Assembly (NCBI GenBank): GCA_027217645.1
Contig: GCA_027217645.1_4344.1
DNA: 41,360 nucleotides
Strand: one strand, 5' to 3'
DNA from: a phage
This document shows positions 1-41,360 of the stretch, piece after piece (within the stretch, counting starts at the first letter, position 1; each line of letters opens with the position of its first letter). The position numbers and the translations under genes were made by a program. Under the pieces are notes generated by a model that was not told where the DNA came from, ran no database searches, and was given only the letters and a program-made list of their open reading frames with translations.

Positions 1-30
1 AAAAAAAATCCCGGCTGGGTCAGGGCCGGG
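1..30 (-). terminator. Rho-independent terminator closing the minus-strand lysis operon
   Basis: Seen in sequence: CCCGGC/GCCGGG stem (10-15, 25-30) followed on the minus strand by a run of 8 U (plus 1-8), just downstream of the endolysin stop at 97. Confidence 0.55.
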
Positions 31-96
31 ATAAAACTGGAGAGCAGAGGGATGGAACAGGAGGTGATTTAAGTATCGTCGGATTAGTCTCAGGTG

Positions 97-1180: not shown

Positions 1181-1211
1181 TACCACGGGTAGGAATTATC
1201 CTAATAGTTGT

Positions 1212-1505
1212 TTATTTATGTCTCCAGATGTATTGGCGTCTCTGCGGTTTCGTCGGAATATCATCGTATCCCAACGATTTCCAGTAATTAAATAGCCGAT
1301 TAGCGATTGCTGCGCGTTCCTGTGTTTTAAACTCACCGAGATTCACAGCCTTCCCGTTATGGAATCCACAGGCGCGGACCGCTTTGCGTCTGGCCTGAAT
1401 CTCGGGGTACAGTGCATTACGGCGGCGCTTGTGTATACGCGTATTCGCTCTCGGCGACAGCGGCGCAAGGCCGCTTCGTTTCAGGATGTCAGTTGCTAAC
1501 GACAT
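1212..1505 (-). CDS. Hypothetical basic protein (weak AP2-like DNA-binding resemblance)
   Basis: Track ORF 97 aa; start overlaps upstream stop (TAATG); segment GFHNGKAVNLGEFKTQERAAIA loosely resembles AP2-type domains; not confirmed. Confidence 0.45.
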   Translation of the reverse strand: MSLATDILKRSGLAPLSPRANTRIHKRRRNALYPEIQARRKAVRACGFHNGKAVNLGEFKTQERAAIANRLFNYWKSLGYDDIPTKPQRRQYIWRHK

Positions 1506-2413: not shown

Positions 2414-2442
2414 ATAGTAGCCTATTCTATCTTAGTGTGCAA
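2414..2442 (-). promoter_or_regulatory. Sigma70-like promoter, TTGCAC-N17-TACTAT class
   Basis: Seen in sequence: minus-strand -35 TTGCAC (2437-2442), 17 nt spacer, -10 TACTAT (2414-2419); spacer/-10 contains the palindromic box AATAGTAGCCTATT (2413-2426). Confidence 0.5.
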
Positions 2443-3679: not shown

Positions 3680-3713
3680 AACCCTCACTCCTCTGTCTCG
3701 TTTCGATAAGTGA

Positions 3714-3742
3714 ATAGTACCCTATTATGTTGGGGTGTGCAA
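3714..3742 (-). promoter_or_regulatory. Sigma70-like promoter, TTGCAC-N17-TACTAT class, for the leftward early operon
   Basis: Seen in sequence: minus-strand -35 TTGCAC (3737-3742), 17 nt spacer, -10 TACTAT (3714-3719); contains box AATAGTACCCTATT (3713-3726); near-identical to the promoter at 25940-25968. Confidence 0.55.
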
Positions 3743-3961
3743 GAGATTAGTTACGTTGCCGTTGTGATTCTTTAGTTTAATGGGATAGCGAGCGAAACGA
3801 AACGAACGTGGTGCCGAAGGCACCAAGAGTGAGTGAGTGAGCTTGCGGATATAACCTACGGCAAATCAGTAACTTAGATATTTAGGCTGGAATTACAATA
3901 GACTTTGGGCCTCCCAAACGCGCTAGCGAGCCTCACTCCACACGCTACACGTGCTCGTTTC

Positions 3962-4042
3962 GCCTGCCGCGCGCCGCGGTCGCTTGTTCATACTTCACAA
4001 GCTCAGGCTGAGCTTACCATATTTCTTAGTAAAAGTCAATAC
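3962..4042 (+). repeat. Copy A of an ~80 bp dispersed non-coding element (copy B at 34562-34643)
   Basis: Seen in sequence: 38 bp identical core CGCGCCGCGGTCGCTTGTTCATACTTCACAAGCTCAGG (3970-4007 and 34569-34606) with diverged flanks; contains hairpin GCTTGT-N9-ACAAGC. Confidence 0.8.
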
Positions 4043-4086
4043 CAGTAGCATCTTTTGCATCTTAGTAACTTTGTGTGGTGTTTTGG

Positions 4087-4115
4087 TTGCTTTTACATTC
4101 CCGCTATCCTATACT
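4087..4115 (+). promoter_or_regulatory. Candidate sigma70-like promoter for the rightward operon
   Basis: Seen in sequence: TTGCTT (4087-4092), 17 nt spacer, TATACT (4110-4115), about 30 nt upstream of the ATG at 4147. Confidence 0.4.
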
Positions 4116-4146
4116 TGGCTTCACCAAACAAACAGGAGATTTAAAA

Positions 4147-4329
4147 ATGCAACATTACATGACCCAGAATGAAGTAGCCGAGCGTATCGGGGTGACACGT
4201 CAGACAATTAATAACTGGTTGCGCAGTGGTAAATTCCCGGATTGTTGTATTAAGGTTATGGGCCGCCGTTTGCCTGGAACATTTGACCGTAATAAAGTTG
4301 AAGAGTGGATTAAGGAGAACGTGAAATGA
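4147..4329 (+). CDS. AlpA/excisionase-like helix-turn-helix DNA-binding protein
   Basis: Track ORF 4075..4329 with start at the ATG at 4147 (AGGAG RBS); MTQNEVAERIGVTRQTINNWLRSGKFP matches the AlpA-family HTH pattern. Confidence 0.6.
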   Translation: MQHYMTQNEVAERIGVTRQTINNWLRSGKFPDCCIKVMGRRLPGTFDRNKVEEWIKENVK

Positions 4330-6996: not shown

Positions 6997-7024
6997 GCAA
7001 AAAGAAAGGGGCGTTAAGCCCCTT
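6996..7024 (-). terminator. Rho-independent terminator for the XRE regulator gene
   Basis: Seen in sequence: AAGGGGC/GCCCCTT stem (7006-7012, 7018-7024) followed on the minus strand by UCUUUUUG; the hairpin overlaps the regulator stop codon. Confidence 0.55.
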
Positions 7025-7229
7025 CACCGAACACCAGCCACTTGGCGTCTACCTCTAGCACTTCCGCCAGTTTAAACAGCGTTGCTGGGCGGACGTACCG
7101 CGTTACCCCGAGTGCAAGCTGGTTAATCGCGCCCTGGGAAACACCGGACAGGACAGCCAGACGGCGTTGGGAAATGCCGAGTTCTTTACGGCGCTGTTCT
7201 ACACGGATGCCTAGTTCAGATGGTTGCAT
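7014..7229 (-). CDS. XRE-family (Cro/CI-type) helix-turn-helix transcriptional regulator
   Basis: Track ORF 71 aa; LGISQRRLAVLSGVSQGAINQL is a textbook XRE HTH; AAGGAG RBS; transcribed divergently from the promoter region carrying two palindromic boxes. Confidence 0.75.
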   Translation of the reverse strand: MQPSELGIRVEQRRKELGISQRRLAVLSGVSQGAINQLALGVTRYVRPATLFKLAEVLEVDAKWLVFGEGA

Positions 7230-7293
7230 GTCAATTACTCCTTAGCCAGTTGATATGTGAATAGTACCATATTAATTATTTTAGAAAAGCCCC

Positions 7294-7322
7294 TTGACAA
7301 GTGAATAGTTCGCTATTATAGT
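7294..7322 (+). promoter_or_regulatory. Strong sigma70-like promoter, TTGACA-N17-TATAGT class, with embedded palindromic box
   Basis: Seen in sequence: TTGACA (7294-7299), 17 nt spacer, TATAGT (7317-7322); box AATAGTTCGCTATT (7304-7317); second imperfect box AATAGTACCATATT at 7260-7273; drives the gene at 7354. Confidence 0.6.
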
Positions 7323-7353
7323 TAGCCCATACCAAACGAGAGGAGAGAAACAA

Positions 7354-7875
7354 ATGTTAGAGAAATTCTTGGTATTACTGGAACGTTTCGTAGTCGCCCA
7401 CGAACTGATTGCTGCAAACAGTGTGAAACAACCGACTAGCAAATCTGTAGGTGAATTGACTGTTGACGTCGCGGTAACTGGGGTAGAGACAGTTAAAAAG
7501 GAACTGGCTAAAGCACTTGAAGAAGTCGAGAAGGCGAAAGAAATCCCGGTTGAAGGTGAAGACATCGTCGACACTAAACCAGCAGAAGAAGAGAAGCCGA
7601 AGCGCAAGCCGCGTAAGGACAAAGTAGAGGAACCAACGCCAGAGCCGGAAGAAGAGAAAGAAGAAGTCGATTACCAGTCTCTGCGCGACCAGATTCAGGC
7701 TATCGACGATGCGATTAACGAAGGCCCAAGCGATGCCGCGTGCGACGATTCTGACGAACTGCTGGAAGAGTTTACCGGTAAGAAGATGAAGATTGCAGCG
7801 ATTAAAGACGAAGACCTGGCTGAGTATCTGGAGCGCCTGACAGCAATCAAGAACAAGTATTTCGAAGAAGAATAA
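7354..7875 (+). CDS. Highly acidic early protein of unknown function
   Basis: Track ORF 173 aa; strong RBS GAGGAGAG; long Glu/Asp-rich stretches with one basic patch (KPKRKPRKDK); first gene after a consensus-like promoter. Confidence 0.6.
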   Translation: MLEKFLVLLERFVVAHELIAANSVKQPTSKSVGELTVDVAVTGVETVKKELAKALEEVEKAKEIPVEGEDIVDTKPAEEEKPKRKPRKDKVEEPTPEPEEEKEEVDYQSLRDQIQAIDDAINEGPSDAACDDSDELLEEFTGKKMKIAAIKDEDLAEYLERLTAIKNKYFEEE

Positions 7876-9786: not shown

Positions 9787-9815
9787 TTGACACCTGAATA
9801 GTTAGCTATTATAGT
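9787..9815 (+). promoter_or_regulatory. Sigma70-like promoter, TTGACA-N17-TATAGT class, with palindromic box
   Basis: Seen in sequence: TTGACA (9787-9792), 17 nt spacer, TATAGT (9810-9815); box AATAGTTAGCTATT (9797-9810); upstream of the SSB-like gene. Confidence 0.55.
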
Positions 9816-13091: not shown

Positions 13092-13372
13092 CTAAAGAGG
13101 GCCGCGTACAGAAATACGCAAAAGACCGATTCGAGGCCCTTGGCGGCCTCGTTCGCAAACTCTCCTACGAGGGGCGTTCCGGCGCCCCAGACCTGCTGGT
13201 AATTCTCCCCGGCGGCATAGTCTGGTTCGTCGAGGTTAAGAAAGACGAGAACACGAAGCCAGACCCGCACCAGCTACGGGAACATGAGCGGATGCGTAAA
13301 CGTGGTGCGAATGTTTTTGTCGTTGGTTCGTTTAAACAGGTTGACGACCTAATAGCTAGCTATTATAGTTAG
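13088..13372 (+). CDS. VRR-NUC domain nuclease (PD-(D/E)XK superfamily)
   Basis: Track ORF 13073..13372, start placed at the ATG at 13088 coupled to the upstream micro-ORF; GAPDLLVILPGGIVWFVEVKK fits the VRR-NUC catalytic core. Confidence 0.7.
   Translation: MTKEGRVQKYAKDRFEALGGLVRKLSYEGRSGAPDLLVILPGGIVWFVEVKKDENTKPDPHQLREHERMRKRGANVFVVGSFKQVDDLIASYYS
13341..13369 (+). promoter_or_regulatory. Sigma70-like promoter, TTGACG-N17-TATAGT, embedded in the 3' end of the VRR-NUC gene
   Basis: Seen in sequence: TTGACG (13341-13346), 17 nt spacer, TATAGT (13364-13369); contains the perfect palindrome AATAGCTAGCTATT (13351-13364), which also encodes the last residues of VRR-NUC. Confidence 0.5.
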
Positions 13373-15968: not shown

Positions 15969-15999
15969 AAAAGGCCCCGTTTGGGGCCTTAGTTTTATG
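15969..15999. terminator. Bidirectional rho-independent terminator between convergent operons
   Basis: Seen in sequence: GGCCCC-GTTT-GGGGCC hairpin flanked by A run on one side and T run on the other; the 31 bp AAAAGGCCCCGTTTGGGGCCTTAGTTTTATG is identical to 28397-28427; tail-fibre stop codon lies in the T tract. Confidence 0.7.
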
Positions 16000-25939: not shown

Positions 25940-25968
25940 TTGCACACCCCAATATAATAGGGTACTAT
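25940..25968 (+). promoter_or_regulatory. Sigma70-like promoter, TTGCAC-N17-TACTAT class, driving the plus-strand cassette
   Basis: Seen in sequence: TTGCAC (25940-25945), 17 nt spacer, TACTAT (25963-25968); box AATAGGGTACTATT (25956-25969); near-identical to the minus-strand promoter at 3714-3742. Confidence 0.55.
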
Positions 25969-25998
25969 TCACTTACACCAACAATGAAGGGGTTTAAA

Positions 25999-28396: not shown

Positions 28397-28427
28397 AAAA
28401 GGCCCCGTTTGGGGCCTTAGTTTTATG
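28397..28427. terminator. Bidirectional rho-independent terminator (identical to 15969-15999)
   Basis: Seen in sequence: same 31 bp hairpin plus flanking A/T runs; the major tail gene stop codon lies in the T tract. Confidence 0.7.
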
Positions 28428-34561: not shown

Positions 34562-34643
34562 ACCTGCCCGCGCCGCGGTCGCTTGTTCATACTTCACAAG
34601 CTCAGGTGGAGCTTAGCACATTTTTGGTGAAAAGTCAACTATT
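34562..34643 (+). repeat. Copy B of the ~80 bp dispersed non-coding element (copy A at 3962-4042)
   Basis: Seen in sequence: identical 38 bp core at 34569-34606; the second hairpin differs from copy A by apparently compensatory substitutions. Confidence 0.8.
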
Positions 34644-34704
34644 CGAATAGTTTATTCCAACATTTACAATTGAGTGGAATAACTGGAATAATCACAGGCA
34701 CTAA

Positions 34705-34724
34705 AAAGCCCCTTTCGGGGCTTC
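34705..34724 (-). terminator. Rho-independent terminator
   Basis: Seen in sequence: AGCCCC-TTTC-GGGGCT hairpin followed on the minus strand by UUUUU; the same hairpin recurs at 36276-36291. Confidence 0.55.
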
Positions 34725-34727
34725 AGT

Positions 34728-35189
34728 TTATTCTGGCTTAGTAACCTTCGCTGCTTTACTTACGGCCTCTATACCATCGGCATCAGTGACTTTAACGAAG
34801 TATTCACCAACTGCGTTAACCGTCAGAGACAGAGCCTCTTCCGGGGCGTTTACCACTTCCTTCCCGTCTTTGTACCAGGTCAGCGCATATGGTGCTTTGC
34901 CCGCCTTAACTTCGACAGCGATATTTGCGCTGCCGTCTGCCAGTTCAGCGTCCTGCGGTTGTACGGAGAAATACACATCACCGGCATCCGCCAGGTACTG
35001 AATCTCATAAAGCATACCTGCCGCTGGCAGCGCAATACCGGTCTTGTCCGCAAACGGCATATCGTCCACTGGTGTTCCGAGTACACTTTCGTCTTCAATA
35101 AACACCACGTTCTCGCCAGAGCCAGACACGCGGGCGTACTGGACTACGCGGCGTGACGGTACGTCAGTTACTTTGAAAAAGCCCATCAT
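34728..35189 (-). CDS. Hypothetical virion-associated protein
   Basis: Track ORF 153 aa; strong AAGGGG RBS; start overlaps the head-morphogenesis stop; C-terminal half looks like a small beta domain. Confidence 0.4.
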   Translation of the reverse strand: MMGFFKVTDVPSRRVVQYARVSGSGENVVFIEDESVLGTPVDDMPFADKTGIALPAAGMLYEIQYLADAGDVYFSVQPQDAELADGSANIAVEVKAGKAPYALTWYKDGKEVVNAPEEALSLTVNAVGEYFVKVTDADGIEAVSKAAKVTKPE

Positions 35190-41309: not shown

Positions 41310-41338
41310 AATATAATAGGGTCTAAGGTAATAGTCAA
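41310..41338 (-). promoter_or_regulatory. Sigma70-like promoter, TTGACT-N17-TATATT, for the right-end minus-strand gene chain
   Basis: Seen in sequence: minus-strand -35 TTGACT (41333-41338), 17 nt spacer ending CCCTAT, -10 TATATT (41310-41315); related to the other promoters of the family. Confidence 0.5.
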
Positions 41339-41360
41339 CTAGTCATTACAGAAAACAGAT

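Follow-up and report, generated by a model that had tools for sequence, protein, structure and literature searches.

What does a small repressor-like protein do in a phage in which no integrase or CI-type gene is found? This question is raised by a stretch of phage DNA of 41,360 nucleotides (GenBank assembly GCA_027217645.1, contig GCA_027217645.1_4344.1; hereafter the window, i.e., the whole stretch that was analysed), which encodes on its minus strand a 71-aa helix-turn-helix (HTH) protein of the XRE family, called here the regulator, next to two short boxes. The source phage is a Kagunavirus, i.e., a K1-type siphophage of the Guernseyvirinae. The window shows 94% identity with the Escherichia coli K1 phage vB_EcoS_fTaEco01 (fTaEco01 below) and 92% with phages RP180 and Golestan, and its gene order is collinear with the 41.3-kb map of fTaEco01. 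No integrase, CI-like gene or RNA polymerase gene is present on that map, and Pfam scans of the less obvious open reading frames (ORFs) of the window agree with this, as does the initial annotation, which had seen neither an integrase nor other lysogeny genes. The reading favoured here, to which we assign a rough probability of 0.55, is that the regulator is an autoregulated repressor of the 434 Cro type without a CI partner, which would bind operators dispersed among the phage promoters and turn down their transcription during the lytic cycle.

The regulator and the boxes beside its gene

The regulator gene is flanked by the primase-helicase gene and a gene for an acidic protein and, as judged by the collinear relative fTaEco01, it is the sole opposite-strand gene from the gene of an HTH_17 protein to that of the SNF2 helicase. 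The features of the locus are listed below; the ribosome-binding site and the regulator's promoter were read from the sequence.

7014..7229, minus strand: regulator gene, encoding a 434-Cro-like HTH_3 (XRE-family) protein of 71 aa
7243..7238, minus strand: ribosome-binding site AAGGAG of the regulator gene, 8 nt ahead of the ATG
7025..7005, minus strand: intrinsic terminator of the regulator gene, a hairpin GAAGGGGC-TTAAC-GCCCCTTT followed by a T-run; no T-run on the plus strand
7230-7353: spacer from the regulator gene to the acidic-protein gene, 124 bp
7260-7273: putative operator O1 (box 1), AATAGTACCATATT, an imperfect dyad with 9/10 half-site bases; on the minus strand AATAT-GGTA-CTATT
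7304-7317: putative operator O2 (box 2), AATAGTTCGCTATT, a perfect dyad AATAG-TTCG-CTATT
7294..7322, plus strand: promoter P4, TTGACA-17-TATAGT, 11/12 consensus matches, heading the unit from the acidic protein to a Cas4-like nuclease
7261..7269, minus strand: proposed promoter of the regulator, with the extended -10 element TGgTACTAT wholly within O1 and no usable -35

By homology and predicted fold, the regulator is a 434-type Cro-like protein. Residues 11-65 match the Pfam family HTH_3 (PF01381; E-value 2.9e-12, 46.9 bits against a cut-off of 23), which places the protein in the XRE family. Its best match by sequence in the PDB is Cro of phage 434 (1zug/2cro/3cro; phmmer E-value 1.6e-6, residues 6-68 against 4-64), followed by the DNA-binding domain of the 434 repressor and, as weaker matches, by HipB and HigA. 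In the BLASTP alignment with 434 Cro, which covers 63 aa, 40% of the residues are identical, and the regulator has two additional residues in the loop that follows helix 3. The AlphaFold2 model (predicted local distance difference test score, pLDDT, of 78) contains five helices (residues 5-17, 21-28, 32-39, 48-57, and 62-66), and its top match in Foldseek is 2cro (E-value 8e-4, template modelling score 0.72-0.78), so that homology search and structure prediction, both of which the initial annotation had named as checks, rank 434 Cro first. The recognition helix reads S-Q-G-A-I-N-Q in the regulator and K-Q-Q-S-I-Q-L in 434 Cro, and its first Gln is invariant across all aligned homologues. In the crystal structures of the 434 system the Gln at the start of this helix contacts the adenine at operator position 1. 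The regulator consists of the HTH domain only, with no oligomerisation domain and no C-terminal dimerisation, S24 or cleavage domain, and its gene is monocistronic. A CI-type lysogeny repressor was considered and rejected on account of the size (71 aa, HTH only) and of the integrase not being found; an antitoxin of the HipB or HigA type was likewise rejected, given the monocistronic gene, the lack of an adjacent toxin gene and a context that is constant in all relatives.

A tblastn search with the regulator retrieved 538 phage records, i.e., ~115 from Kagunavirus at 90-96% identity, ~350 from Jerseyvirus at ~50%, Cornellvirus-like phages at 39-41% and, beyond the Guernseyvirinae, lambdoid temperate phages at 35-45%. 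Homologues occupy one common genomic slot throughout the Guernseyvirinae or else the Cro slot of lambdoid phages; the toxin-antitoxin modules, which the initial annotation had named as a setting that would speak against a regulatory role, are not where they occur. In the relatives, the gene already bears labels such as “Cro”, “transcriptional repressor” or “DicA”. A separate search for homologous proteins returned close relatives only, all with an identical recognition helix, and across Kagunavirus this helix is frozen, whereas the remainder of the protein drifts.

The starts of O1 and O2 are 44 bp apart. O2 occupies the spacer of P4, and its final base is the first base of the -10 element. 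The single “mismatch” of O1 creates the extended -10 element TG-G-TACTAT, with no usable -35, and O1 therefore most likely covers the regulator's own promoter; in Jerseyvirus, TTGCAC/TTGCGT-17-TACTAT stands at the position of this promoter. Relatives with regulator homologues were examined in 80 loci from IMG/VR, four additional contigs and four complete genomes. In 31/31 Kagunavirus genomes O1 reads AATAT-G[G/C]TA-CTATT, its centre being only GGTA or GCTA, and the TG is retained where the following base changes (GGTA to GCTA). The O1-O2 spacing across genera (44-45 bp, ~55 bp, and 63 bp) shows no consistent helical phase.

Two further observations concern transcription across the regulator gene from the other side. 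On the plus strand, a terminator-like hairpin lies at 7162-7179 inside the gene, antisense to it, which might block transcripts that run on from the primase gene. The hairpin 3' of the primase gene has its T-run only on the minus strand, so rightward early transcription may cross the regulator gene in antisense and may thereby delay expression of the regulator.

A family of promoter-embedded dyads

The regulator gene with its own ribosome-binding site and terminator, as well as the 124-bp spacer with two boxes 44 bp apart, the second of them in a TTGACA-17-TATAGT promoter, had all been described in the initial annotation and are present as described. Its wider picture has to be redrawn in part. 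The minus-strand gene does stand alone on the fTaEco01 map, but the 12-kb plus-strand stretch around it, which had been taken for one operon, comprises at least four promoter-headed transcription units. Similarly, the boxes, which had been treated as a local pair, are two members of a seven-site genome-wide family. The proposed likeness to a cro/cI-type divergent switch holds for its Cro side (434 Cro as the best match, operators of the 434 type), while in place of a local switch there appears to be a dispersed regulon of seven operators. The further suggestion in the initial annotation, that the protein may time early transcription and not maintain lysogeny, is plausible.

The box is a 14-bp dyad, AATAG-N4-CTATT. 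Exact copies of it occur 6 times in the window against 0.04 expected, and copies with at most one mismatch 11 times against 0.9 expected, which excludes chance. A motif-blind scan for degenerate 18-mer repeats also ranked this dyad family first in the window. The family has seven copies (2413, 3713, 7260, 7304, 9797, 13351, and 25956), at which a position weight matrix (PWM) built from the seven sites scores 25-35 bits, compared with a maximum of 16 bits in 20 shuffles. All seven lie in sigma-70 promoter cores, the regulator's own proposed promoter included, and the symmetry is perfect in six of them. Moreover, the three best sigma-70 matches within 1-20 kb (7294, 9787, and 13341) all carry a dyad in the spacer. 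Two classes of promoters can be distinguished: in class A (P4, P5, and P6), TTGAC(A/G)-N4-dyad-ATAGT, the dyad takes up the spacer and reaches the -10 element, and in class B (P1, P2, and P7), TTGCAC-N10-dyad, the -10 element TACTAT is the right half of the dyad. As the dyad stands in differing registers relative to the -35 element, it constitutes an element in its own right and not a contact of the polymerase. The remaining promoters and the two neighbouring genes to which the text returns are the following:

9787..9815, plus strand: promoter P5, TTGACA-17-TATAGT, with a perfect operator at 9797-9810; unit of the single-stranded DNA-binding protein and DNA polymerase
13341..13369, plus strand: promoter P6, TTGACG-17-TATAGT, with a perfect operator at 13351-13364; unit of the C5-methylase and SNF2 helicase
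3742..3714, minus strand: promoter P1, TTGCAC-17-TACTAT, with a perfect operator at 3713-3726 over the -10; leftward small-gene operon
2442..2414, minus strand: promoter P2, TTGCAC-17-TACTAT, with a perfect operator at 2413-2426 over the -10; second leftward small-gene unit, running into the lysis genes
25940..25968, plus strand: promoter P7, TTGCAC-17-TACTAT, with a perfect operator at 25956-25969 over the -10; unit of imm, metallophosphoesterase, PNK-type phosphatase and kinase
41343..41315, minus strand: promoter P8, TTGACT-17-TATATT, upstream of the block of small genes and terminase
41330-41343: near-operator of P8, ACTAG-TTGA-CTATT (9/10), over the -35
4147-4329: gene of the HTH_17 (Xis/Cox-like) protein, 60 aa, heading the HTH_17-primase operon
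7354..7875, plus strand: gene of the acidic protein, 173 aa, first gene of the P4 unit, with no Pfam match (PHROG 3127, function unknown)

The near-operator of P8 is possibly a weak site: its PWM score is at noise level within one genome, and the mismatch is kept in most Kagunavirus loci. A scan allowing at most one mismatch found no dyad in the 460-bp region (3727-4146) ahead of the HTH_17-primase operon.

The conservation of the dyads in Kagunavirus was followed at six orthologous promoter positions in 24-31 genomes, which gave 173 sites with nearly invariant half-sites. Both are intact in 31/31 cases at O2 and in 27/27 at P1, with one or two single-base exceptions each at P5 and P6. At five of these positions, the central 4 bp occur in 5-7 forms (six different 4-mers at O2), and the bases between the dyad and the -35 element vary in sequence and even in length. 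Such fixed outer bases around a free centre in a 14-bp frame are the signature of a 434-type operator, as far as sequence comparison goes. The same dyad sites are found in a divergent lineage in which the regulator is 75% identical, with changed N- and C-termini and an identical recognition helix.

Outside Kagunavirus, the genome of the Jerseyvirus SE2 has the box family at the seven corresponding positions (three perfect dyads and four with one degenerate half). Scans of the Cornellvirus-like phages VSiA and TS6 for perfect dyads and strict repeats showed no enrichment; in Cornellvirus-like genomes a relaxed dyad, AWTA-N6-TAWT, occurs 9-10 times against ~2 expected (at most 6-7 in 100 shuffles), between -35 and -10 elements and most commonly with the half-site ATTAG. 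Upstream of the lambdoid Cro-slot homologues there are three 14-bp dyads in a layout like that of the window boxes, and here a KQQT helix goes with ACAA-N6-TTGT and an RQQS or KQQS helix with ACAG-N6-CTGT. There is thus a coarse covariation of helix and half-site, QQ[ST] with ACA[AG] and SQ[GS] or TQS with A[AT]TA, which is not decisive for the identity of the binder, because Kagunavirus and Jerseyvirus share the box despite unlike helices.

It is also worth mentioning some observations made during the dyad and promoter searches. Just ahead of the holin genes, the spacer of a weak site resembling a promoter (1224..1195, minus strand) contains a near-dyad, AATAGTTGTTTATT (9/10), at 1203-1216; it is found in a few relatives only (L007 and L029) and may be a chance occurrence. 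An identical leader, AAACGAGAGGAGAG, stands between promoter and start codon after P2 (2390-2403, minus strand) and after P4 (7334-7347, plus strand), with a close variant of it after P1, and P6 and P7 share another leader, CACCAACAAT; leaders common to several promoters suggest duplication of promoter-plus-leader cassettes. The idea that the box near 25946 is a divergent activator site, at about -42 of a leftward tail-operon promoter, was rejected, the candidate promoter having a 15-bp spacer and a poor -35.

Candidate binders of the dyads and the proposed circuit

Several lines of evidence point to the XRE protein as the binder of the dyads. Operators with this geometry serve its closest relatives, whether or not their structures are solved, and its own promoter is flanked by two dyads. 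In Kagunavirus the recognition helix stays constant against the drift in other parts of the protein, and no other small DNA-binding protein is common to the three genera with promoter-embedded dyads. A dimer of the regulator would bind the 14-bp dyad and, sitting on the operator, would occlude the spacer and the -10 element, so that RNA polymerase would be excluded and the promoter repressed. In this way, the replication and recombination units would be repressed via P4, P5 and P6, and the leftward small genes together with the imm/nucleotide-metabolism unit via P1, P2 and P7. As the regulator's own operator would be the weakest (9/10 half-site bases, the only imperfect one of seven), the perfect operators are expected to fill first and self-repression to come last. 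Overall, early and middle transcription in lytic growth would be turned down with a delay, in an autoregulated and self-limiting manner, sparing the parts that have no perfect operator, namely the stretch upstream of the HTH_17-primase operon and the late block of terminase and structural genes. The analysis shows the fold and homology of the regulator as well as the anatomy, statistics, positions and conservation of the sites, and from these we infer the binding itself, the repression, the order of affinities and the timing role.

A number of points weigh against this reading. The Kagunavirus and Jerseyvirus regulators are ~50% identical and differ at four of the helix positions after the Gln (QGAINQ against QSLITH), yet both genera have AATAG/CTATT, and it is the HTH_17 protein that is 80% identical between them, the strict box being present only where HTH_17 occurs. 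The lysis genes lie downstream of the operator-bearing P2, an arrangement not accounted for by a simple early-off, late-on scheme. In the RNA sequencing (RNA-seq) study of phage K1B4, the only one for Kagunavirus, the regulator orthologue (gene 004, 216 bp) falls into a broad “middle” class, and the polymerase, methylase and imm genes are “late”, unlike what an early shut-off would give; the sampling at 5-120 min is, however, too coarse for a test of timing with a latent period of 30 min. Finally, the searched literature contains no binding or expression experiment on any member of the group.

An alternative binder of the dyads would be the HTH_17 protein or a host factor, with the XRE protein regulating only itself or something else. 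The 80% identity of HTH_17 between Kagunavirus and Jerseyvirus parallels the common box, the protein is confined to exactly these two genera, in the K1B4 data no annotated gene except that of HTH_17 (008) is classed as “early”, and the HTH_17 promoter region has no dyad. On the other hand, small HTH_17 proteins of the Xis/Cox/AlpA type typically bind direct repeats and not 14-bp palindromes, the layout of the dyads matches that of the operators beside the lambdoid homologues of the XRE protein, and two dyads flank the promoter of the XRE gene. Moreover, Cornellvirus-like genomes retain promoter-embedded dyads and the XRE gene, while no HTH_17 homologue was detectable in them (tblastn; Pfam on ten small ORFs). 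In VSiA (L003, 34354-37005) and TS6 (L004, 1205-4095) the XRE gene lies directly upstream of and co-oriented with the primase-helicase gene, i.e., in the slot that the HTH_17 gene occupies in Kagunavirus and Jerseyvirus. A shared host factor is unlikely, since SE2 and VSiA both infect Salmonella and differ in their half-sites (AATAG and ATTAG, respectively). Taken together, we regard a binder other than the regulator as quite improbable. It is very improbable that the repeat has no dedicated binder at all and is just a duplicated promoter cassette kept by descent and polymerase contacts. The flanks are common too (gTG on one side, an ATAGT or TTGCACACCCCAA block on the other), and each dyad partly overlaps a -10 element; nevertheless, at least one half-site per site lies in the spacer, where sigma-70 has no base-specific needs, and is invariant there, in contrast to the central bases next to it and to the 4-5 nt beside the -35, which vary. 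The register of the dyad relative to the -35 differs among the sites, and six of the seven copies are perfectly symmetrical. As for a promoter of a phage-encoded RNA polymerase, the PHIRE consensus tgAATAGTa-ccTATTat-T was stated for fBC-Eco01 (PMC9825357), and seven PHIRE “phage promoters” are listed in the same publication and in the paper on Golestan. This explanation is effectively refuted by the absence of an RNA polymerase gene from the collinear annotated genome of fTaEco01 and by the sigma-70 -35/-10 hexamers with 17-bp spacing that frame every copy; the ORFs of more than 600 aa are the primase-helicase, DNA polymerase and tailspike (identified by Pfam scan) and the tail protein and tape measure (by collinearity with fTaEco01 only).

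A different kind of alternative keeps the binding and the repression and changes their role: the promoters would be held off in a non-integrated carrier or pseudolysogenic state with superinfection immunity, in a phage with neither integrase nor CI. In principle, a stable “off” state could be held by a repressor that controls itself through an operator weaker than those of its six targets. The Jerseyvirus SGP-C was reported with turbid bull's-eye plaques and immune, possibly episomal “lysogens”, for which its authors implicate the regulator gene (PMC8790156), and a complete Kagunavirus genome of 44,086 bp, from a clinical E. coli blood isolate and with regulator and operators intact, has been deposited as the circular plasmid pC16EC0033-2 (CP088689.1, L091). 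However, the evidence for SGP-C is indirect, and other papers on Jerseyvirus describe clear plaques and a lack of induction by mitomycin. A search of 5,426 complete E. coli genomes gave no match, and PLSDB gave a single match and none for Jerseyvirus; the one record could be a phage carried along in culture. A 71-aa protein that has no oligomerisation or cleavage domain also fits such a state poorly, as does the fact that no partition or plasmid-maintenance genes were seen on the fTaEco01 map or in the Pfam scans of window ORFs. We therefore consider the carrier role unlikely, and doubt still more that a minimal Cro-only circuit of one repressor and seven operators holds a non-integrated immune carrier state with no CI, integrase or partition genes.

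Related systems, genome context and implications

The favoured reading, that of a Cro-type repressor turning down lytic transcription, has its closest precedent in phage 434. Like the regulator, 434 Cro is a 71-aa protein of five helices with a Gln at the start of the recognition helix, and its operators overlap promoters, including its own. The 434 operators (OR1-OR3, ACAA-N6-TTGT) are, like the boxes, 14 bp long with conserved outer bases, a free centre and A at position 1. The regulator thus shares with 434-type Cro proteins the single domain of ~70 aa, the fold and the homology as well as, in sequence anatomy, dyads over its own and a divergent promoter. It differs in the half-site (AATAG), in the helix after the Gln (G-A..N-Q in place of Q-S..Q-L) and in the two-residue insertion in the loop between helices 3 and 4. 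There is no opposite cI gene, no tripartite OR and no integrase here; the divergent neighbour encodes the acidic protein, with two operators in between and not three, and seven operators are spread over 24 kb instead of being clustered at OL and OR. The prophage repressor DicA (40% identity) and lambdoid Cro-slot proteins (39-45%; 45% for Klebsiella phage GZ7, in which the gene has exactly the position of Cro, between cI and cII) are the nearest relatives outside the Guernseyvirinae. Unlike the regulator, the lambdoid homologues are encoded between cI and cII of temperate phages and have QQ[ST] helices and ACAA or ACAG half-sites.

Other known systems resemble the proposed circuit in single respects. 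Phage P1 C1 is one repressor with many scattered operators, which are asymmetric 17-bp sites, and it serves plasmid lysogeny with antirepressor circuits. It is similar to the regulator in logic only, as a small phage repressor acting on dispersed promoters; C1 is unrelated in sequence, and the plasmid-lysogeny and antirepressor apparatus is not seen in the window phage. Controller (C) proteins of restriction-modification systems, such as C.AhdI, share the small XRE fold and appear among the fold matches of the regulator. They are delay timers, which by means of graded-affinity operators at their own promoter first activate and then repress one operon beside a restriction gene. In the window phage the sites are dispersed, there is no restriction endonuclease in the genome, and the C5-methylase gene lies 6 kb from the regulator gene under its own promoter, hence this identity was rejected. 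In P2/186-type phages, a non-inducible small C (or CI) repressor is paired with a small Xis/Cox-like HTH protein (Cox/Apl). The window phage also has a small repressor and a Xis/Cox-like HTH protein, but their genes are 2.9 kb apart and not face to face, and there is no integrase. The Cox similarity of the HTH_17 protein was pointed out by the authors of the SGP-C study (PMC8790156).

Some elements of the genome lie apart from the regulator locus. At window positions 1-35, the minus strand has a strong intrinsic terminator (CCCGGC...GCCGGG, then T8) directly after the endolysin gene; on the circular map, P8 (41343..41315) comes next. A bidirectional terminator of 31 nt, AAAAGGCCCCGTTTGGGGCCTTAGTTTTATG, is present in identical form at 15969-15999 and 28397-28427, both where convergent operons meet, and a third, similar one lies at 34703-34733. 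A 70-nt direct repeat, CGCGCCGCGGTCGCTTGTTCATACTTCACAAGCTCAGG...AAAAGTCAA, is present in two copies with 87% identity (3970-4039 and 34569-34638), which lie within long non-coding stretches, one ahead of the HTH_17-primase operon and the other between the head/tail genes and a spanin-like gene. A looser similarity seems to extend ~70 nt further upstream. A scan of the whole window against Rfam gave no match, either here or elsewhere, and the repeat could be a non-coding RNA, an origin or a packaging-related element.

With respect to earlier work, the annotation of the gene as Cro or repressor is already known, the motif has been published as “phage promoters”, and the mechanism is a classical one, i.e., a Cro-type repressor on dyad operators overlapping promoters. 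The link between gene and motif, the reading of the motif as an operator and the extended -10 account of box 1 were not found in the literature searched and appear to be new. Guernseyvirinae phages are widely treated as strictly lytic and find use in therapy and biocontrol. Those of Kagunavirus and Jerseyvirus rank among the agents proposed most often against E. coli K1, urinary tract infection strains and Salmonella, and Kagunavirus genomes also serve as engineering chassis. Genomes of both genera have repeatedly been flagged for a “repressor”, and SGP-C was called temperate on the basis of the repressor gene (PMC8790156). If the favoured reading is true, the control of seven promoters by one Cro-type repressor would explain the “phage promoter” motif that was earlier assigned to a non-existent phage RNA polymerase. 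It would also provide a compact repressor-operator pair, ready-made within near-consensus sigma-70 promoters, as well as a testable model of temporal control for the Guernseyvirinae, which would bear on the question of carrier-state safety.

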